DNA of 64,000 nucleotides from a virus. Below the pieces are notes generated by a model. The model ran no database searches. It worked only from the letters and a program-made list of their open reading frames with translations, and was not told where the DNA came from. Made by a program: the position numbers and the translations under genes. Positions 12,076-41,600 of the stretch are shown here, piece by piece (within the stretch, counting starts at the first letter, position 1; the number at the start of each line of letters is the position of its first letter). The stretch covers positions 1 to 64,000 of the IMG/VR virus record IMGVR_UViG_3300042330_000854; one strand, given 5' to 3'.

Positions 12076-12098
12076 TTAAGGGAGAATTTCTCCCTTAA
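12076..12098. terminator. GGGAG..CTCCC hairpin terminator
   Basis: ttaagggaga-att-tctcccttaa overlapping the stop of the DUF2828 gene. Confidence 0.6.
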
Positions 12099-13477
12099 TA
12101 ATCATACCGATCTTGCACAATAGTTTTTAACATAACTTTTTCAGGAGATAAATCACCACCAAGTAAGGATTTTAAAATTGTTGGACTAAAACCAGAAACC
12201 AATGCAGTTCCACTACTATGAATGGTAACAGGAACATTACCAACACGACCACTTAAATTCCAAAATACAATTTGTGGTAATTTATAACCAGATTGAGCAT
12301 ATTTTTCTTTAACCATTTCATACATGGATAAATCTTTTGAATCTTCTGAACAAGCATCAAATTCCATATCGGAAAGAATAAGAATTTTTGTTGGCATTTG
12401 ATCTTCTTTGACCGAAGATTTTTTAGCAGAATTAAGAACAAGGTCAAATACTTTTTGAATATTAGTATTATAACCCCAATCAGATTTACTCATTGATTGA
12501 TAACGTTGTGATAAATCTCCAACTAATTTTACAAAATTTGGACGTTCACTAAAAGTAATAAATTGGTCTTTAAAAACACCAACATTGCGTTCTGAAATAT
12601 AAAGCCCAAGTGAAATAGCGGCATCCATTGCTGTAACTTGCCCAGAAATTGGTTGATCCATGCTTCCACTTACATCAACTACGGGAAGAATACGTTCATT
12701 TGAACCTTCCATATAATTTGGTAATGCGTTCCATTGTGCAACGCTTACAACTTTATCGCCATTATTCAATGAACGAATAACATCATAAGGATAAACAGCA
12801 CCAGCATTAACTTTAGCTTCACCTTTGGTTAAAGCAGTTTTATAGCTTTCATAACGATCAGCATCATGCTTTTTAAAGGCTTTCTGATAACGACCAGCAG
12901 CAACCGAAGGAACATGGTTGTATTCAATTTTATCCCATTCTTTAGCACACATTTGTTGTTCAACGGTTGCAGAAAGATTAACCAATAATTTACGATAATC
13001 TTTTGGAGTTAAACGAAGATAAGCACGAAGTTTATTTGCATCATCGCCTTTTCGTGGTGCCCATTTAGCTGCCAAGCCATTTTTATCGCGCAAAGAATTT
13101 GCGTAAAGCTTTAAAGCATTGCGTTCAATTTCAGTATTGAATGCAACAAAAATATCATCAAATCTTCCCAATTCAGGAAGACGATTTAAAACTTTAACAG
13201 CTAATTCTTTGTTTTGTTCAACAAGAACTTTAAAAAGTTTACGGAAAGTTTCGCGTTCACCAGCACCATTGCGAACATCGCGTGCCCAAAGCAAATTACG
13301 AATTGCTAAATCTTGATTTTCAGCTAATGCTTGGATAAATAACGCGGAAATATCTTTCTTACGACTTGCGCCGATTTGAAAAAATAAATCAACATTGTTG
13401 TTTAATGATGAAAAATTTGTAACAGCACCATTTTCAGTTAATGCAGTTGTATTGATCGCTTGAAATAAAGAAGTCAT
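12095..13477 (-). CDS. DUF2828 / TROVE(Ro60)-like protein with C-terminal vWA domain
   Basis: TENGAVTNFSSLNNNVDLFF, ARDVRNGAGER, AAKWAPR, vWA MIDAS VDVSGSM, ILSDMEFD, IVFWNL, LVSGFSP. Confidence 0.85.
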   Translation of the reverse strand: MTSLFQAINTTALTENGAVTNFSSLNNNVDLFFQIGASRKKDISALFIQALAENQDLAIRNLLWARDVRNGAGERETFRKLFKVLVEQNKELAVKVLNRLPELGRFDDIFVAFNTEIERNALKLYANSLRDKNGLAAKWAPRKGDDANKLRAYLRLTPKDYRKLLVNLSATVEQQMCAKEWDKIEYNHVPSVAAGRYQKAFKKHDADRYESYKTALTKGEAKVNAGAVYPYDVIRSLNNGDKVVSVAQWNALPNYMEGSNERILPVVDVSGSMDQPISGQVTAMDAAISLGLYISERNVGVFKDQFITFSERPNFVKLVGDLSQRYQSMSKSDWGYNTNIQKVFDLVLNSAKKSSVKEDQMPTKILILSDMEFDACSEDSKDLSMYEMVKEKYAQSGYKLPQIVFWNLSGRVGNVPVTIHSSGTALVSGFSPTILKSLLGGDLSPEKVMLKTIVQDRYDY

Positions 13478-19636: not shown

Positions 19637-20461
19637 ATGCGTTTAAAAACTTTATTAGAAAAAATTGAAATGAATGAAATGCCTATTCAGAATTTTCAAT
19701 CTATTGGCAATCCTTTAGATAAAGGTGGAAGCTTTGATAAAACAGATCGAGCTATTTTGTCAAGTGAAAAAGGCATTGAAAAAATTAAAAGAATTTTTTC
19801 AAATTCAGAATTTTATTGGAATTTATATTTTATTAACAGTGGGCGTTTACGCAGCAAAGGCGAAATGGGTGTTTATTCATTTAATGATTTTCAAAAATTT
19901 ATGGATAATGAAAATGTTGATGTTAGCGAATTAAAAGAAACTGATCCAAGCGCAATTAATGTAGTTTTTGTTTCTAATAGTGCAGCAAATAAAAATCAAT
20001 TATCGGCTTGGATTTTAGCTCACAGAATTGGTCATGCAATAAGACGTAATAATCCTTATTGGGATCAATTAATGAAAGATACACAACGCGAACTTTCTTA
20101 TGCAGTTAGAAGTGTTTATACAAATCAATATGATACCTTAGCTAATTATCGCTGGGATTGGTATGATAGTAATACTTATACCAAATCACCACAATTACAA
20201 ATGCTTTGCAGTTTAGGTAAATTTAAATCTGCACGTGAAAAGAAAATTAGAAATTGTTATGAAGCAAATTATGAATTTTTTGCCCAATATGTGATTAATA
20301 ATCAAATTAAAATGAACCCAATGCCTGAAGTTTTTAGCAGAGTTAGATCAGAATATGATTTAGATGACCGTCAAGATTATGCTGATAATTTAGCAAGTAT
20401 GTTTGAAGCTAATTTTCATAATGTTTGTTCATTTGCTAAAGGCAAATGGTTAATTATGTAG
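19637..20461 (+). CDS. putative virion/head-packaged protein with HxxxH motif
   Basis: MRLKTLLE..EMNE leader; WILAHRIGHA; late-promoter-like CATAAATA upstream. Confidence 0.55.
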   Translation: MRLKTLLEKIEMNEMPIQNFQSIGNPLDKGGSFDKTDRAILSSEKGIEKIKRIFSNSEFYWNLYFINSGRLRSKGEMGVYSFNDFQKFMDNENVDVSELKETDPSAINVVFVSNSAANKNQLSAWILAHRIGHAIRRNNPYWDQLMKDTQRELSYAVRSVYTNQYDTLANYRWDWYDSNTYTKSPQLQMLCSLGKFKSAREKKIRNCYEANYEFFAQYVINNQIKMNPMPEVFSRVRSEYDLDDRQDYADNLASMFEANFHNVCSFAKGKWLIM

Positions 20462-28541: not shown

Positions 28542-29114
28542 ATGAAAATGATTGAAGAATTAGAAAATATCTTAAAAAACAATCTTTATTTTTTAAGAGG
28601 ATCAAGAATTTATCAAACCAATCATGAAAACTCTGATTGGGATTTTTGTGTTATTGGAGATTTAAACGATAATCAAAAAATTAAAATAAACTCTTTGCTA
28701 AATTGTAATTTTGAATTTTTTACCAAAGAAGAATTTCAAAATGAAATTTACAATCATGAAATTTCAGCACTAGAATGCTTATGGACAAAAGAAAACAATT
28801 TTCTTTTCAATCTTGATTTAAAAATTTTGAGAAAATCAATCGCCCAAAAAGCAAGCAATTCTTATGTTAAAGCAAAAAAGAAACTAATCGATAATGAAAT
28901 CGAAATAGCACAAAAATCTCTTTTTCATAGCTTTCGTATTTTAGATTTTGGAACGCAAATTGCAACTAATGGTAAAATACAAAATTATTCTTCTATGAAT
29001 TTTATCTTAAATGAAATTAAAAATTTAGAACCAAATTGGAATTTATGGGAAGAAAAATTTAAAAAATTACATAATCAATTTCATAGTGAATTTAAAACAA
29101 AGGCGCCAAAATGA
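28542..29114 (+). CDS. DNA pol beta-superfamily nucleotidyltransferase
   Basis: LRGSRIYQT...SDWDF; KSLFHSFRILDFG. Confidence 0.8.
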   Translation: MKMIEELENILKNNLYFLRGSRIYQTNHENSDWDFCVIGDLNDNQKIKINSLLNCNFEFFTKEEFQNEIYNHEISALECLWTKENNFLFNLDLKILRKSIAQKASNSYVKAKKKLIDNEIEIAQKSLFHSFRILDFGTQIATNGKIQNYSSMNFILNEIKNLEPNWNLWEEKFKKLHNQFHSEFKTKAPK

Positions 29115-31024: not shown

Positions 31025-31197
31025 AATTACCCAATAAAAAGTTCTTGACAAAAAATACTAAATAGATTACAGTCTTTTAATAAATTAAAGAAAATAATCT
31101 ATTTTGTTAAATACTAAACAGTTATTTTTCTAATTTTTAACAAAATAGATGTTGACAACAAAAACAAGATAAAGTATCGTAAGAATATAACAAATAT

Positions 31198-31341
31198 GCG
31201 GGCATGGGGGAACTTGGCAGACCCGACGTTCTCATTTCCAAGAAATAGGCAAGTATTATTTTAATACTTTCAGTGCAATTCTGATAGGAAAAACAAAAAA
31301 CGTTTCCAATAGGAGTGCGAGTTCAAGTCTCGCTGCCCGTA
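31198..31341 (+). tRNA. tRNA-Leu(CAA) interrupted by a 61-nt insert in the anticodon loop (about 31233-31293)
   Basis: GCGGGCA/TGCCCGT acceptor, ACGTT/AACGT anticodon stem, long variable arm, GTTCAAGTC; removing the insert restores ctCAAaa. Confidence 0.8.
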
Positions 31342-31491
31342 CAATAAATTATAAGAGCAATCTTATAATTTAGTTCTTTTAAATTGTTAAACTAAAGTAA
31401 TTTAGTACCTTAGACATAATTTAGCAACTGCTTGATTATGCATAGAACAGGTTCTAAGGTGACAATTAACTTTCTATGGTTAATTGATAAT

Positions 31492-31578
31492 GGGGAGATT
31501 TTTCTGACCCTGACTGTAAATCAGGTGGCGTTAAATATCAGAATGGATGCCGAAGAGGTTCGATTCCTCGTTTCCCCA
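31492..31578 (+). tRNA. D-armless 8/4 tRNA-Tyr(GTA)-like RNA
   Basis: CCTGA-ctGTAaa-TCAGG; GAGG-ttcgatt-CCTC; TTCTGA can pair with TCAGAA in the variable-arm loop. Confidence 0.7.
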
Positions 31579-31668
31579 CAATAAAAAAAGATTAAGTTAT
31601 TAACAAAAAAATTGTTGACAAACAAATCAAGATAAAGTAACGTAAGAATGTAAACGAGATAAGAAACT

Positions 31669-31770
31669 TTGATAGTAACCAGTTGGTAGAAGTGCTTTAC
31701 GGTAAAACATATCAAGTAGGAAATGACTTGAGTGCGTAAAGAAGCGGTGGTTCGATCCCATCCTATCAAA
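31669..31770 (+). ncRNA. tRNA-like RNA with the anticodon loop replaced by an extended arm
   Basis: TTGATAG/CTATCAA acceptor, AGTTGGTAGA D-loop, CTTTACG/CGTAAAG stem enclosing a TCAAGT/ACTTGA hairpin, GGTTCGATCC. Confidence 0.65.
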
Positions 31771-31954
31771 ATTTCTTAAATTGTTACTTGACTAAGTAAA
31801 TTAAATATAGTAAGTTTTATCATCAAATAACAAGGAGAAATAAAAATGGACATTTTTGGTTTTTACATGACACTTTGGCCCTTTTTTATTGAACTTAATT
31901 CAATGGGTCAAACGTATATTGACTTTTATCGTCAATTGCATTAATTTTAAACTT

Positions 31955-32039
31955 GGCCTCTGTCCCTCTCACGGTCTTCTAAACCGTCGTCATTAAAATG
32001 GAGGATGGATGACAATGGGTTCGATGCCCTCAGAGGTCG
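31955..32039 (+). tRNA. D-armless 8/4 tRNA-Arg(TCT)-like RNA
   Basis: GGCCTCTG/CAGAGGTC; ACGGT-ctTCTaa-ACCGT; CCTCT can pair with GGAGG in the variable-arm loop. Confidence 0.7.
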
Positions 32040-32330
32040 CGTTAATATAGTAAAATTATAAAGAATAGATTTAAATCTATTCTCACAATTCGGGGATAAA
32101 AACAGCAGCCTCTTTTTGTAGTAACGATTTCCCTGAATTTTAATTTTGACAATTAAAGAAAATTATGATAAATTATACTTTATAGTATAATTCTTATGCT
32201 CTGGTAGTTTAATGGTTTAAAACTTTTACTACTATCATATCTTTGGACCTGTAATTCAACAGTAGAAATAATAAATATATAAATAAAATATTTCTTGTTA
32301 ATTTAAAAGTAAAATTGACAAACATATATT

Positions 32331-32401
32331 GCTTCCATGTTGTAATAGTAGCAAAAATTCCTCATAAGAATTTAGATTTGGGGCAGAACCAAATGGAAGT
32401 A
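32331..32401 (+). tRNA. tRNA-Met/Ile2(CAT)
   Basis: AATTC-ctCATaa-GAATT; T-loop GGCAGAA. Confidence 0.75.
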
Positions 32402-32856
32402 CACGTTATACATAAACAAAAAAGATTTATACAAGTCTCTTTTTCATACCTCTTCTAAATCCATCTGGTATTGGATCAGTTTTTAAAATACGTATATTAA
32501 TAATTTCATCAGTAATATACCAATATTTTGAATTAGTTTCAGATATTTTTTGTTTGGTTAATAATCCAAAATTAGATTATTAAATTTAATTAGTAAAAAA
32601 GTTCTTGACAAAGAATATAAGTTGTAGTAATTTAATATATAAAAAATATACCTTATCCGGTAATAAGTTTTAAAGATAATTTTGATATTTTATAATCTTT
32701 AAAAGTAGTTACATCAATGCGGTTTTAGTTAATAGTAAAAAAAACTAACAACTGCATTCGGCAAATACATTTGTATTTCGCGGTATTAAAAAATATCAAG
32801 TTTTTTATATACCTAAAATTCTTTTGACAAAAGAATATAAGTTGTAGTAAATTAAG

Positions 32857-32927
32857 ATAAGAATTAAAACCTGAGGTCAGGCAACTTGGCAAAGTTGAAT
32901 TAGGTTCGAGTCCTCTTTAATTCTTAT
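32857..32927 (+). ncRNA. compact tRNA-like RNA with AGGT D-tetraloop (GGC anticodon-like)
   Basis: ATAAGAATTAA/TTAATTCTTAT; CCTG-aggt-CAGG; CAACT-tggcaa-AGTTG; AGG-ttcgagt-CCT. Confidence 0.6.
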
Positions 32928-32930
32928 TAT

Positions 32931-33001
32931 GCGGGATTAGCATAAAATTAATGTGCTTGGCTTCCACCCAAGATAAATCGGAGAGTTACCGATATTCCGC
33001 T
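32931..33001 (+). tRNA. tRNA-Gly(TCC)
   Basis: GCGGGAT/ATTCCGC, U73; CTTGG-ctTCCac-CCAAG; T-loop AGAGTTA. Confidence 0.85.
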
Positions 33002-33062
33002 CTTTAAAATAATAGTTGGTTTGATGATTTATCCTAATTTAAAATCATCGTTTATTTGGTGT

Positions 33063-33158
33063 GACGATTAACCACTTTGCAAAAAAGTTCATCTGCTGAA
33101 GAATAAGATAATGATCTTGGTAGTGCTTGATTAGTAGCAATTATCAAAAATAATCGTC
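33063..33158 (+). ncRNA. four-way-junction ncRNA, copy 1 (homologue at 39848)
   Basis: GACGATTA/TAATCGTC closing stem; shared ATGATCTTRGTRGYG.T.GATTAGTAGCAAT core. Confidence 0.55.
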
Positions 33159-33259
33159 CTCTGGTGGGGTGTATATTTATTAAAAATATTTATTTTTGTT
33201 GTCTTACATTGTGTTTTATGTAAAATTTGATAAATATATTTATGAAATTATCCGATTGG

Positions 33260-33627
33260 GTAAGAAAAGAAACCAATGATCAATTTTTTTAATTGGGATT
33301 TGGTAGAGGATTATTCCATGACAACTCGCAAAGTTTAAGTGCGCCGTTAATCCCATTAAAGAAATTTCTTTAATAAAGACAAGTAATAAAAATATATATT
33401 ACTTGTAACGGTGTATAGCAATATCCCTGGTTGATTAGAACCAAAATCTAATCACCATTATGGTTAGTAAATAAACCACTCGTAAGAGTTTTTCGTAAGA
33501 AAAATAAGATTATGACGAATTTTCAACTCGTTAGTAACAATAATCCTAAAAAATATTTACTGGCGGATGGTAGAGTTTACTCTACGATCTAGGTTGCTTA
33601 GAACCTTAATCTAAGCACTTTTCTTAC
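33260..33627 (+). ncRNA. large (~370 nt) structured ncRNA candidate
   Basis: Terminal helix GTAAGAAAAG/CTTTTCTTAC, internal GGATTATT/AATAATCC, many GNRA-capped hairpins; no ORF of 60 aa or more. Confidence 0.55.
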
Positions 33628-33714
33628 AGAAGATTATGAAAAATTGTAAAAAAACATATCCTCTGTAAAAAAATAGTTCTTGACAAAAAGAACTATAATT
33701 AATAATATATTTTT

Positions 33715-33800
33715 ATGCTTGGAGAGTAGAATACAGGGAAACTGGCCTTGGTGTTCCAAGGAACGCAAATCACAATTGGTTCAAATCCAATCACAAGCAT
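33715..33800 (+). ncRNA. T-arm-bearing tRNA-like RNA, copy 1 (homologue at 47739)
   Basis: TGCTTG-GAGAGTAGAATAC...ATTGG-ttcaaat-CCAAT-CACAAGCA. Confidence 0.6.
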
Positions 33801-33807
33801 AATTTAT

Positions 33808-33890
33808 GGACACAGTGATATCAGTGGTCAATATCAACGTACTTTTAATACGTCGCGTAAGCTTTCTTGGTTCAATTCCAAGTGTGTCCT
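33808..33890 (+). tRNA. tRNA-Lys(TTT) with long variable arm
   Basis: GGACACA/TGTGTCC; ACGTA-ctTTTaa-TACGT. Confidence 0.8.
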
Positions 33891-33941
33891 CTACAAAAAA
33901 TACTTGACAATAAATAAATATAATAGTAAAGTAAGTTTTAT

Positions 33942-34015
33942 TGCGGAGTAGAGAAAAAGACATCTCGCAGGCTTCATGCGCCTGAAATAGTTGGAGCGTT
34001 ACCAACCTCTCGCAT
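33942..34015 (+). tRNA. tRNA-Met(CAT)
   Basis: CAGGC-ttCATgc-GCCTG; T-loop AGCGTTA. Confidence 0.7.
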
Positions 34016-34021
34016 CTTTAA

Positions 34022-34111
34022 TGGCGCGTACTCTAATGGTAAGAGACAAGATTGTTAATCTTGCGTATTCCGATTTTCGGTATGTTGGTTCGATCCCAAC
34101 CGTGCTAGCCA
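34022..34111 (+). tRNA. tRNA-Asn(GTT) with long variable arm and encoded CCA
   Basis: CAAGA-ttGTTaa-TCTTG; GTTCGATC; ends GCCA. Confidence 0.85.
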
Positions 34112-34155
34112 ATATGTTAAAATAAAGTATATTCAATTACGATATATTTTAAATT

Positions 34156-34230
34156 ATCCTTGTGGTGTAGAAGTTAACATGTCAGTCTCCAAAACTGAAG
34201 TCCAGATTGCAAAATTCTGCAAGGATGCCA
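34156..34230 (+). tRNA. tRNA-Trp(CCA)
   Basis: TCAGT-ctCCAaa-ACTGA; ends GCCA; T-loop TGCAAAA. Confidence 0.85.
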
Positions 34231-34426
34231 TAAAAATTATTAATATAATTCAATATAGGAGATTAATATGACTGATAATACAAATGATTACAAAGATGAC
34301 ATTTCAGAAGAATATATTAATTTTTTAGAAAATAAATCATCCTATTTAGATGATGAAGAATGGGAATTAGTAGATTCAATGTAATTTAGTTATTGACATA
34401 ATTCAATAATTGAGTTATAATAATTT

Positions 34427-34782
34427 AAAGATTAGTTTCAGCAAAAATAATTATTTTTTTTTGATAAAAAACAAACACTAATCTGAAATATTTTAAAGTT
34501 TAAAGAATAGGTTCTGCAAAATTTCAAATTAGCAAAATCAGATTAATCCTCTGATACCGAGGTTTTATATTTCCTCATTAATATAAAATGTAAAAAACTA
34601 TTCTGTACTAATTTTCTTTTTAGTTGTTTAAAGAATGATTTCAGCAAAATTTAGCTTGGAAATGCAAAAAACATCATTCTGATTTATTTCCTTATATTAT
34701 ACTTTCTTATTTTATAGTTTAAAGGATGAGTTCCGCAAATTTTAAAATTTCAATTTTTGGTTTGAAAAACAAAATCATCCTG
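34427..34782 (+). ncRNA. array of four CxGCAAA stem-loop RNAs (34427-34485, 34502-34605, 34630-34681, 34721-34782)
   Basis: Each has tttAAAG-stem-TT.C.GCAAA-inner hairpin-stem-CTG with covarying stems; starts just after TTGACA-17-TATAAT (34393-34421). Confidence 0.7.
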
Positions 34783-34839
34783 ATTATCTCTTTATAGTTT
34801 AATAGTTTAAAATACTAGAGGGAACATTTTTAGTTTTAT

Positions 34840-34912
34840 TCCAGAATCTTCTAACTGATAAGAAACAAGAATTTGAGTCTTGGCAATGTAGGTTTAAATC
34901 CTACTTCTGGAT
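34840..34912 (+). tRNA. tRNA-Gln(TTG)
   Basis: TCCAGAA/TTCTGGA; CAAGA-atTTGag-TCTTG; T-loop TTTAAAT. Confidence 0.75.
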
Positions 34913-34964
34913 CACATAAAAAATAGTTGACATGTACCTAAATCCATAGTAAATTATTTTTATT

Positions 34965-35038
34965 GCCGTTTAAGCTAACTTTAGTAGAAGCGCTTGCATG
35001 AAGAGCAAGAGGACTTGGCGCGAAACCAAGAAGCGGCA
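34965..35038 (+). tRNA. tRNA-Phe(GAA)
   Basis: GCCGTTT/AAGCGGC; CTTGC-atGAAga-GCAAG; T-loop CGCGAAA. Confidence 0.8.
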
Positions 35039-35040
35039 CT

Positions 35041-35330
35041 TTAATCACAGCACAAATTAATATTTTGGGCAAATATTTATAAAATATTATATTAATTTGT
35101 TAAAACGCTCTTATTATCTAGGGCAATGTAGATGTAACAATGATGGTTAAAATCTTCTACCTGTGATTAAAACTCTTGACAAGAATGAAAATCAATGATA
35201 AATTATAATCATTAATTACTACAAAATTCAATGTTTTCGATTTTAGCTTAAATATTGAATTGTTAATAGCGTGAAGCAAAACGCAATGCAGATGTAACAA
35301 AGCAAACAAAATCTTCTGCTAGTAATTGAT
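35041..35330 (+). ncRNA. two homologous multi-stem ncRNAs (35041-35170, 35211-35330)
   Basis: Covarying terminal helices and shared TGTTAA.A.GC..GCAATGYAGATGTAACAA...AAATCTTCTRC. Confidence 0.6.
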
Positions 35331-35450
35331 AATTCAAATCAGATAGTGATTTGAAAGTTTATGGTGATAGTTTTCACGCGATAAACAAATATGCGGGCAT
35401 GGCGAAATAGCAGCCGCGACAAGTAAAAAATATATTTAAAATTATATTTT

Positions 35451-35592
35451 GCTCACGTATCCCAATCGGAAGAGGAAAACGACTCAATCCTGAGAAAAAG
35501 ACAAGTATTATTTAATACTTTCGGTGCAATTCCGATAAGGAAAAAAACAGAAAATCGTTTAGTTGTCGGTTCGAATCCGACCGTGAGTACCA
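35451..35592 (+). tRNA. tRNA (Phe GAA, or short-arm Leu CAA) interrupted by a 65-nt insert (about 35485-35549)
   Basis: GCTCACG/CGTGAGT-ACCA, AACGA/TCGTT anticodon stem, GTTCGAATC; insert homologous to that in the 31198 tRNA. Confidence 0.8.
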
Positions 35593-35604: not shown

Positions 35605-36087
35605 ATGACAAATAATAATGAAAAAACAATAGTTTCATCAAAAGTTTATAAAGATAAAAAATCTAAAAGATTAATACAACATATAAGATATTCAGATGGA
35701 ACAAGAAAAACACGTTCTTATCCAAGAACAATTATGGAAGAATATTTAGGAAGACCATTATTAGACGACGAAACAGTAGATCATATTGATGGTAATGTAG
35801 AAAATAATGATATTAGTAATTTACAATTATTGTCACGAGAAGAAAATGCCCGTAAAGGCGCTTTGGGAAATAAACATACATTAGGTCGTAAACAATCTGA
35901 AGAACATAAACGAAATGGTGCTAAAAACGGCCAAGCAAAATTAACAAATGAACAAGTAATTTATTATAGAAAATCTTATGAAGATAAATCTCTTACTAAA
36001 AATCAAATAATAGAATTAACAAACATGAGTAGGCCCGCTATTGAAAATATTTTAAATTACAAATCATATGTAAATACTAAAAACTAA
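35605..36087 (+). CDS. free-standing HNH homing endonuclease
   Basis: RTIMEEYLGRPLLDDETVDHIDGNVENNDISNLQLLSREEN; NUMOD3-like KQSEEHKR; AKLTNEQV. Confidence 0.85.
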   Translation: MTNNNEKTIVSSKVYKDKKSKRLIQHIRYSDGTRKTRSYPRTIMEEYLGRPLLDDETVDHIDGNVENNDISNLQLLSREENARKGALGNKHTLGRKQSEEHKRNGAKNGQAKLTNEQVIYYRKSYEDKSLTKNQIIELTNMSRPAIENILNYKSYVNTKN

Positions 36088-40865: not shown

Positions 40866-41600
40866 ATGAGTTTAGCTTTATTTGATACAGAGGGGTTGCG
40901 TTTTCGACGCCAAACTGAATTACGATTACGTGAACAAATTAAAAATGAATTAGTAGAAAATATTCAACAAATTTTATTAGATATGAATCAAATGTGGCGT
41001 TTTGAAGAAGTTGAAACGCCATTAATTATGCCTAAAGAATTAATGAATGCAAGTTATGATCTTGATGATATTTTTGTTTTACAAAATAAAATAGCCAATA
41101 AAGATTATGCTTTACGTGCAGAAACAACATTAGGTTCTTATTTAATGGCTGTTGAATTACTTAAAACAACTTCAATTCGTGCTCCTTTGTGTGTTTATAC
41201 ACATGGGCCAAGTTTTCGAGTTGAAAATTCAGATGGGGCAACTGCTGCTAAATTACGGTTTAATCAATTTTATCAATTGGAATTTCAATTAATTTATGGT
41301 GCTGATACCAAAGCGCCGATTATTGAAACAATGATTGAAAAATTACCTACGGTAGTAAATAAAATTCTTAATAAATCTGTTAGAACAATTGAAAGTGATC
41401 GTTTGCCTTCTTATTCGATAGAAACAATTGATATTGAAGTTGAATGGTATTCTGAAACAGCAAAAAAGATGGAATTTAAAGAAATTGCCAGTATGAGTTT
41501 ACGCAAAGATTTTCCTTTAATTCCAGGCCATAAACCGTATCGTGTTTTTGAAATTGCTTTTGGAACTGATCGATTATTGGCTATGAAAAATGGCATTTGA
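40866..41600 (+). CDS. stand-alone class II aminoacyl-tRNA synthetase catalytic domain (GlyRS-like)
   Basis: EVETPLIMP (motif 1), LRAETT, SFRVE...LRFNQFYQLEFQ (motif 2), RLPSYS.ETIDIE, EIAFGTDRL (motif 3); no anticodon-binding domain. Confidence 0.8.
   Translation: MSLALFDTEGLRFRRQTELRLREQIKNELVENIQQILLDMNQMWRFEEVETPLIMPKELMNASYDLDDIFVLQNKIANKDYALRAETTLGSYLMAVELLKTTSIRAPLCVYTHGPSFRVENSDGATAAKLRFNQFYQLEFQLIYGADTKAPIIETMIEKLPTVVNKILNKSVRTIESDRLPSYSIETIDIEVEWYSETAKKMEFKEIASMSLRKDFPLIPGHKPYRVFEIAFGTDRLLAMKNGI

Follow-up and report, generated by a model that had tools for sequence, protein, structure and literature searches.

Two interrupted tRNA genes in a jumbo phage

This work concerns two tRNA genes that are split in the anticodon loop by related, structured inserts, and that lie in the window, by which we mean the first 64 kb (64,000 nt) of the 108-kb IMG/VR virus record IMGVR_UViG_3300042330_000854. 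The record comes from lake water, has a G+C content of about 25% and is about 33% complete as estimated by CheckV; the virus that carries the split genes is an uncultured freshwater jumbo phage. Both genes belong to a cluster (29.9 to 35.6 kb) that holds no open reading frame (ORF) of at least 100 codons and in which small RNA genes are densely packed, most of them preceded by TTGACA-type promoters of their own, as recognised by consensus matches. An initial annotation, made by reading the sequence, had described homologous structured inserts at the same site of two different, otherwise intact tRNA bodies. This description is borne out by ARAGORN, by folding and by covariation, and the insert sequences that it quoted are exact.

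Both genes are overlooked by default ARAGORN. Run with the -i option, the program calls the first of them, at 31198-31342 on the plus strand, as tRNA-Leu(CAA) with a 61-nt intron. Its class II body consists of a 5΄ exon (31198-31234) ending in the loop bases CTCA (positions 32-35 of the tRNA) and a 3΄ exon (31296-31342) with AAA, the anticodon stem, a long variable arm, the T arm and the acceptor (G1.U72, A73); the 61-nt insert, copy 1, occupies 31235-31295. In our set of huge-phage tRNAs, 25 of the 30 bodies most like this one have tRNA-Leu identity. A sigma-70-like promoter, TTGACA-17-TATCGT (31152-31180, plus strand, a consensus match only), lies 17 nt upstream of the gene.

The second gene, at 35451-35592 on the same strand, is called by ARAGORN -i as tRNA-Leu(CAA) with a 65-nt intron, and the Rfam tRNA model covers 35451-35589 with 39.8 bits. 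Here the variable loop is short; the 5΄ exon (35451-35486) again ends in CTCA, the 65-nt insert, copy 2, follows at 35487-35551, and the 3΄ exon (35552-35592) encodes CCA. G1.U72 and A73 are common to both split genes, which are the only tRNA-Leu genes in the 108-kb record. Repeated bases at the junctions permit more than one register, namely 33/34, 34/35 or 35/36 for copy 1, with an identical mature RNA, and 34/35 or 35/36 for copy 2; the register between anticodon bases 35 and 36 is used here for both.

A common fold kept by compensatory change

The minimum-free-energy structure of both inserts is a three-way junction at which a closing stem meets two hairpins, the AT hairpin and the T-loop hairpin. 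In copy 1 the closing stem, TTTCC/GGAAA, pairs 31235-39 with 31287-91 and is followed by an 11-nt linker with AGG within it; an 8-bp AT hairpin (31251-58 with 31262-69) is directly abutted by the 4-bp T-loop hairpin (31270-73, loop TGCAATT, 31281-84), a TA spacer then leads to the 3΄ half of the closing stem, and the insert ends in a tail of 4 nt, AACA. Copy 2 has the same order, with the closing stem at 35488-91 and 35538-41, a linker, the AT hairpin at 35503-10 and 35513-20, and the T-loop hairpin at 35521-24 and 35532-35, also with the loop TGCAATT and followed by TA. Its tail, AAAAAACAGA, runs 10 nt past the closing stem (9 nt past layer 11 of the stack considered below), against the 4 nt of AACA in copy 1. 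The loop fits the T-loop pattern U-N-C-R-A, 2 nt separate its 4-bp stem from the 3΄ half of the closing stem, and a UGCAA loop is also found in the T arms of the phage's own tRNAs at 34156 and 36224.

The two copies differ at about 10 positions, six of which make up three compensatory pairs; the closing stem has two of these and the T-like stem the third. This last one, a change between TCAG and TCGG, had been pointed out in the initial annotation, and the two pairs in the closing stem now join it. In the window copies three pairs have both partners changed and none has a single partner changed, with 97% of the cells paired, against no pair with both partners changed and 33-53% of the cells paired in the slid controls; one end pair is broken between the copies, and all remaining helix substitutions are compensatory. 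Between the two copies of another phage (G001, see below), both partners differ in four pairs, again with no pair altered at a single base. Covariation was counted on these two pairwise alignments only, because four-way MAFFT alignments lacked structural register at the closing stem.

Taken alone, the inserts have weak thermodynamic z-scores (-1.2 to -1.5), so that the case for the structure is made by recurrence and covariation, not by stability. The 35-nt core common to the inserts occurs twice in the window, with 0 occurrences expected in shuffles, and was not found elsewhere in the 108-kb record; with a covariance model of this core the two copies reach 87.5 and 84.4 bits, and the next best match reaches 15.8. 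The same design is the minimum-free-energy structure of all seven inserts (7/7) that we compared from four phages. These comparisons of sequence indicate that the structure of the insert is kept under selection. We also considered a dispersed DNA palindrome, AAGTATT/AATACTT, and rejected it, for it is no commoner than expected from base composition (16 and 27 occurrences, against about 35 expected).

Members of the family in other phages

A Pol-beta-type nucleotidyltransferase gene (28542-29114), of a family widespread in 300-500-kb phages, adjoins the tRNA cluster and was used as a handle, which led to 80 huge-phage loci. Among them is that of G001, an uncultured phage with a complete 315-kb genome, which has adjacent split tRNAs at L052:19916-20038 and 20052-20190 with 50-nt inserts; one has a class I body, the other a class II body, and both read GTT. 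Three further members were found with the handle gene as query against cultured phages. These are a split tRNA-Asn of Agrobacterium phage Atu_ph07 (323903-324023, 46-nt insert), a split tRNA-Asn of Salicola phage SCTP-2 (298728-298840, 45-nt insert) and a second Atu_ph07 gene at 68159-68280 (hereafter Atu_ph07-68k), whose insert has in common with the window copies a UGCAA T-loop, a TA spacer and the tail AACAG. The initial annotation had named homologues in other phages as a thing to look for, and they are present in G001, Atu_ph07 and SCTP-2. The family compared here thus comprises seven inserts from four phages, the window phage included. The inserts measure 45-65 nt and have a closing stem, a GG-bearing linker or hairpin, and a T-loop hairpin by the 3΄ strand; only the T-loop hairpin and the A-rich tail are conserved across the seven members, and linkers and stems vary freely.

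The position of the insert is fixed in the Asn members, because the tRNA-Asn of Agrobacterium phage OLIVR5, which is intronless and 92.5% identical to the Atu_ph07 exons, reads straight through the junction with an uninterrupted CTGTTAA. Judged from this alignment, the junction of the Asn members is between anticodon bases 35 and 36. This bears on the second split gene of the window, for which the initial annotation had entertained both Phe(GAA) and Leu(CAA). Phe(GAA) is the less likely, as it needs a 33/34 junction, and wherever the junction can be fixed in the family it is 35/36. The body of the gene is most similar to the short-variable-arm tRNA-Leu(UAG) of other huge phages, likewise with G1.U72 and A73 (L103:10079-10157 and L098:2020-2095), and an intronless tRNA-Phe(GAA) is already encoded at 34965-35038. 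On these grounds Leu(CAA) is favoured.

Atu_ph07 has been described as carrying tRNAs for every amino acid but Asn and Thr (Attai 2018). In addition to the split tRNA-Asn, we found in this phage a third split gene of 106 nt at 335108-335213 (L119:306-414, minus strand), in which TTTG and TAA are separated by 33 nt. It is probably a Thr(UGU) gene that an insert of a different type splits at 35/36, with Ser(UGA) as the alternative that ARAGORN gives in a second register. The split genes of Atu_ph07, Asn(GUU) and probably Thr(UGU), would thus fill in for the tRNAs reported missing. This replacement is the best argument that the inserts are removed to give working tRNAs, which we regard as probable on the comparison of these genes.

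Decay is the opposite possibility, with the split genes as pseudo-tRNAs struck by a small mobile DNA element. Close to copy 2 there are traces that would agree with this. About 40 nt upstream of the gene, at 35385-35412 on the plus strand, sits a remnant of a tRNA-Leu leader and 5΄ end (20/20 bases match 31190-31208) followed by a degenerate D arm and lacking the 3΄ half. We take the remnant for a recombination scar, one that suggests DNA recombination as the way in which the insert came to the second gene. An HNH gene is adjacent, the tail of copy 2 is an expanded A-tract, and an intronless allele of either gene was not found in public contigs. However, both bodies pass ARAGORN at default stringency, the helices have been kept by compensatory change through the approximately 10 differences between the inserts, and the design is conserved together with intact exons in four distant phages. 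We consider decay highly improbable, and the least probable of the explanations weighed here.

Other searches delimit how far the family could be followed. An exact-pattern scan of IMG/VR for the insert core gave no match, and a looser T-hairpin pattern gave one chance match, without a tRNA. No relatives were found by single-protein searches with the amidoligase and the terminase, nor any match by blastn of the 4.6-kb cluster against cultured phages. The covariance model R1, built from the two window copies, recovered only those two, with the G001 copies at noise level; in a tRNA-model search of 23 phage records the low-scoring split genes were not among the best 150 matches, and a descriptor scan was too permissive, returning ordinary tRNAs besides the known copies. 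A metagenome scan with the intronless Leu anticodon arm gave two chance matches inside a GC-rich coding gene and no intronless allele, a viral scan with intronless copy 2 (either anticodon) gave no match, and the contigs of four lake DNA runs, whose cover is patchy, contained no joint across either insert, which says nothing either way.

Huge-phage tRNA genes also carry other families of short inserts, seen at L088 and L089 (G001), L091 (G004), and L095 and L096 (G026). Of the unrelated types, one consists of an 8-bp AT hairpin flanked by CTYTT and GAAA, a second, in three huge-phage tRNAs, starts ATGGCTTCTG, and a third ends GGTTATCT and is located before the anticodon. Of the 365 tRNA genes that ARAGORN called in the clusters from eight phage records, 14 were flagged as containing an insert, some of them probably in error.

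The inserts compared with known introns and ribozymes

To our knowledge, the only tRNA introns of known mechanism in bacteria and their viruses are self-splicing group I introns. These measure at least about 200 nt, have a conserved catalytic core (P3-P9) and a terminal G, and are found in tRNA genes of bacteria, plastids and phages, for example in tRNA-Leu(UAA), tRNA-fMet and tRNA-Arg. They resemble the inserts described here in interrupting a bacterial-type anticodon loop and in their frequent linkage to homing endonucleases. A group I intron was nevertheless rejected, for the inserts, of 61 and 65 nt, have no Intron_gpI match, whether at gathering or E-value thresholds in the window or in a search with the insert alone, and end in A, not G, in the 35/36 register. 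Archaeal and eukaryal tRNA introns are defined by a bulge-helix-bulge (BHB) motif of two 3-nt bulges and a 4-bp helix, which is cut by EndA/Sen, the exons then being joined by RtcB or Trl1. Their removal depends on proteins, without catalysis by the intron and with the exons held by the tRNA body, as we propose below for the phage inserts; they are found at 37/38, whereas the inserts are placed at 35/36 (fixed for the Asn members) and the phage ligase is of the 3΄-OH/5΄-phosphate type. A BHB intron was rejected too, as the CTCA 5΄ flank has no complement in the A-rich 3΄ flank (AACAAAA in one gene, AAAAAACAGAAAA in the other), and the most that the splice sites of the Asn-type members allow is a helix of four layers that contains one bulge and a G.A mismatch. 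The view of the initial annotation that the inserts are neither group I nor BHB introns is therefore upheld, no Rfam intron matching them and no BHB being drawable.

No Rfam family reached threshold for the inserts in a search of the window, and at E<=10 the insert alone matched no group I or group II intron, no ribozyme family, among them the small self-cleaving ones (hammerhead, twister, pistol, hatchet, HDV and hairpin), and no tRNA (RF00005). A nested tRNA gene was rejected on the missing RF00005 match, the 3-nt loop of the AT hairpin (copy 1) and the tail AACA, and a hammerhead because its candidate CUGA is paired and covarying.

A small self-cleaving or self-splicing ribozyme, which the initial annotation had put forward among the ways of removal, would account for a small structured RNA with conserved helices and with both junctions in one internal loop; a phage-encoded splicing endonuclease was also not found (EndA search of the approximately 33%-complete record of the window phage). 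Against self-cleavage stand the absence of an Rfam ribozyme or intron match at E<=10 for the insert alone, the lengths of just 45-65 nt, the fact that the T-loop hairpin and the A-rich tail are all that the seven members have in common, and the lack of an evident guanosine-binding site or omega-G in the window copies. We hold self-cleavage to be very unlikely. The best reading of these sequence comparisons is that the insert is a real, non-self-splicing intron without a catalytic core.

A tRNA-like geometry and a possible route of excision

In a tRNA, A76 is reached 16 nt (5 + 7 + 4) after the T-loop. The four Asn-type inserts likewise have their 3΄ junction 16 nt past the T-loop, and they open with the 5΄ member of layer 12 in the stack that the closing stem forms with the T-loop hairpin, matching position 1 of a tRNA. 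Copy 1 and Atu_ph07-68k are built likewise, with a stack of 11 layers and a tail of 4 nt (AACA and ACAG, respectively). By analogy, the insert would span 'position 1' to 'position 76' of a miniature tRNA-like helix, with its 5΄ end at the site where RNase P would cut.

We propose that the insert acts as an anticodon-less tRNA mimic, in which the stack of 11-12 layers would replace the acceptor and T arms, the GG-bearing linker or small hairpin would stand in the place of the D arm and the short A-rich 3΄ tail in that of N73-CCA. The precursor would be cut by enzymes that read this tRNA shape, RNase P at the 5΄ junction and a second endonuclease at the 3΄ junction; the tRNA body would hold the two halves together after the cuts, and the ATP-dependent RNA ligase of the phage would seal them (3΄-OH/5΄-phosphate). 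RNase P leaves 3΄-OH and 5΄-phosphate ends, which a ligase of the PF09414 type joins without end healing. RNase Z does not fit the 3΄ junction and was rejected, since its cut behind position 73 would make the 3΄ exon three bases too long; a common rule of cutting after ACA was rejected as well, because the 5΄ junctions come out inconsistent. Taken as a whole, a tRNA-mimic insert between 35 and 36, RNase P-type excision and sealing by a phage ligase make up our best explanation, to which we give a little less than an even chance. The particular step by which RNase P and the ligase would do the work is more tentative.

A PF09414 ATP-dependent RNA ligase, of the 3΄-OH/5΄-phosphate type, is encoded by all four insert-carrying phages (4/4). 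That of the window phage, a protein of 218 aa (E 7.5e-30), lies in the same record outside the window, at G000:C1:79081-79737 (L004:15081-15737); its neighbours have no match to an RNA-repair family, the only Pfam match nearby being an ORF with the NUMOD3 motif. In Atu_ph07 the ligase gene (66519-67163) follows a split tRNA of the same strand at a distance of about 1 kb. RtcB (PF01139) was not found in the full records of G001 (called 100% complete), Atu_ph07 and SCTP-2, and neither EndA (PF01974) nor RtcB in the approximately 33%-complete record of the window phage, in searches that covered phage genes only. The initial annotation had listed RtcB and an RNA ligase as enzymes to seek in the genome, and the second is the one that is present. 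It had also offered removal by a nuclease and a ligase as one of its readings; with an RNA ligase present and the missing tRNAs of Atu_ph07 replaced by split genes, this is the reading that the evidence favours.

At the DNA level, spread and persistence of the element are probably tied to free-standing homing endonucleases encoded nearby. A free-standing HNH endonuclease gene (35605-36087, plus strand; Pfam HNH_3, E 5e-10) starts 13 nt after the second split tRNA and is a candidate homing partner. Another HNH gene lies 66 nt from Atu_ph07-68k, an annotated homing endonuclease adjoins the Thr candidate of Atu_ph07 (335108-335213), and there is a weak SegE-like GIY-YIG ORF near the split pair of G001. 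Host RNase P plus a further tRNA-end nuclease, combined with a phage ligase, would amount to a third route of tRNA splicing, used by bacterial viruses and not described before, with the element protecting its gene from the neighbouring homing endonuclease; we put this forward as a possibility on the doubtful side.

Several points weigh against this proposal. Copy 2 breaks the geometric rule, having a tail of 9-10 nt instead of 4, and a cut measured from its T-loop would leave an oversized anticodon loop; in copy 2 either the 3΄ cut is set by another feature or the gene is a weaker one. We know of no bacterial endonuclease that cuts after the '76-like' position of a tail without CCA. The Rfam tRNA model does not detect the inserts alone, and at 4-6 bp their acceptor-like stems are short. 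Phage tRNA clusters often contain homing-endonuclease genes anyway, and the two HNH proteins are alike in the motif region only (31% over 74 aa), so that the idea of a single lineage was rejected. The window is full of aberrant tRNA-like genes, which may point to a non-decoding role for this phage. Finally, RNA ligases are common in jumbo phages (PMC7824862), and the ligase in four of four phages is for this reason weak evidence, consistent with the proposal rather than strong.

The misfit of RNase Z at the 3΄ junction leads to a variant in which a dedicated nuclease of the phage or the host, unlike RNase P or RNase Z, reads the junction loop or the T-loop hairpin, and the ends are healed and sealed in the manner of T4 Pnkp and Rnl1. 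It would explain why the window tails vary (4 versus 9-10 nt) at a constant distance to the anticodon stem, and there is room for such an enzyme: many ORFs beside split genes have no family match, and the Pol-beta nucleotidyltransferase gene beside the cluster (28542-29114) is of a family common in huge phages. However, no candidate was found, EndA was not detected in the approximately 33%-complete record of the window phage nor RtcB in any of the four, and the tRNA-like geometry of the Asn members would be mere coincidence. We judge a dedicated nuclease unlikely, though well ahead of a ribozyme or of decay.

A different view is that the insert stays in, and that the product is a non-decoding scaffold RNA with a tRNA body, serving as a decoy or sponge for host defence nucleases that target tRNA or as partner of a Ro60/TROVE-like protein; in one variant, a leucylated tRNA would be used outside translation, since LeuRS does not read the anticodon. 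The neighbourhood lends itself to this idea, for the 30-36 kb cluster is rich in aberrant tRNA-like genes (one with a 33-nt anticodon loop, class II bodies with Asn, Lys and Arg anticodons, and some tRNAs lacking a D arm), the phage encodes a DUF2828/TROVE protein (12095-13477), and the tail of copy 2 is irregular. The Asn members speak against it: their loop CUGU/UAA and their exons are near-identical to an intronless functional tRNA-Asn, AsnRS requires the anticodon, and in Atu_ph07 the split genes replace tRNAs reported missing. A decoy for anticodon nucleases would moreover require an intact anticodon loop. The initial annotation had also entertained a cap that might mask the anticodon from host anticodon nucleases. 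Retention of the insert we also consider unlikely, about on a par with a dedicated nuclease, and excision of a tRNA-mimic insert followed by ligation continues to be the explanation that we prefer.

Relation to other phage systems

The nearest published counterparts are the 'enigmatic' tRNA introns of Lak megaphages, which measure 79-114 nt and have no Rfam match (Devoto et al. 2019, PMC6784885, Table S6). Like the inserts described here they are short, are not group I introns, interrupt the anticodon loop of huge-phage tRNAs and match nothing in Rfam. They also have an acceptor-like stem with a T-loop hairpin (TTCGAAT), and one of them itself scored as a tRNA (PMC6784885). They differ in having an extra 5΄ hairpin, an A/T-rich spacer and a placement by tRNAscan at 37/38 (PMC6784885), whereas our inserts are of 45-65 nt, hold no full nested tRNA and split the gene at 35/36 (fixed for the Asn members). 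Compared by eye with the published text, without an alignment, the two show no sequence similarity, and neither later reviews nor the literature searched gives a mechanism for the Lak introns. We regard the inserts described here as a smaller and differently organised variant of Lak-type introns. The suggestion of the initial annotation that they form a new class does not hold, in that short unexplained tRNA introns of huge phages have been in print since 2019 (PMC6784885) and the design itself recurs in Atu_ph07 and SCTP-2.

The Lak inserts have stayed unexplained since 2019, partly as Lak phages cannot be grown. A compact, defined variant can now be tested at the bench, as it occurs in two jumbo phages that have been cultured, Atu_ph07 with Agrobacterium tumefaciens C58 as host and SCTP-2 with Salicola. 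Our analysis adds an Asn junction pinned by an intronless orthologue, a geometry that would mirror nucleotides 1-76 of a tRNA and a ligase of matching end chemistry. Standard phage annotation overlooks split tRNA genes of this kind; Atu_ph07 was described as lacking tRNAs for Asn and Thr. If the third route were true, such a tRNA would become functional only in the infected cell.

In a minimal substrate of RNase P, a T stem-loop continues the stack of an acceptor-like stem that ends in a 3΄ tail of 4 nt; tRNA-like elements such as mascRNA are released by RNase P and RNase Z. The inserts start exactly at the base of a stack that resembles such a substrate; they differ from an RNase P minihelix in that the tail is not CCA and in that the 11-12 layers include unpaired spacer nucleotides. 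We know of no precedent for release by RNase P in which both flanks survive and are rejoined. In phage T4, Pnkp and Rnl1 repair the anticodon loop, and free-standing Seg endonucleases are encoded in the tRNA cluster. An intron may home together with a neighbouring endonuclease ('collaborative homing'). The likeness to T4 is that a phage RNA ligase seals breaks in the anticodon loop and that homing-endonuclease genes stand among tRNA genes; the difference is that the break in T4 is damage by a host nuclease, whereas a programmed excision is proposed here.

Other features of the region

Other unusual genes were observed in the same part of the genome. At 31668-31771 there is a tRNA-like gene whose anticodon stem has 7 bp and whose loop of 33 nt includes a CAAGT/ACTTG hairpin; ARAGORN, run at low stringency, reads it as Leu(GAG) with a 26-nt intron, and its insert is of a different type. 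Class II bodies with Lys UUU, Asn GUU and Arg UCU anticodons lie at 33808-33891, 34022-34111 and 31954-32039, respectively, and in G001 a class II GUU tRNA is itself split by an insert (L052:20052-20190). A 244-aa ORF at 40866-41600 has a weak, sub-threshold match to the core of class II aminoacyl-tRNA synthetases. The gene at 12095-13477, in the same RNA-rich part of the genome, codes for a DUF2828/DUF7788 (TROVE-like) protein.

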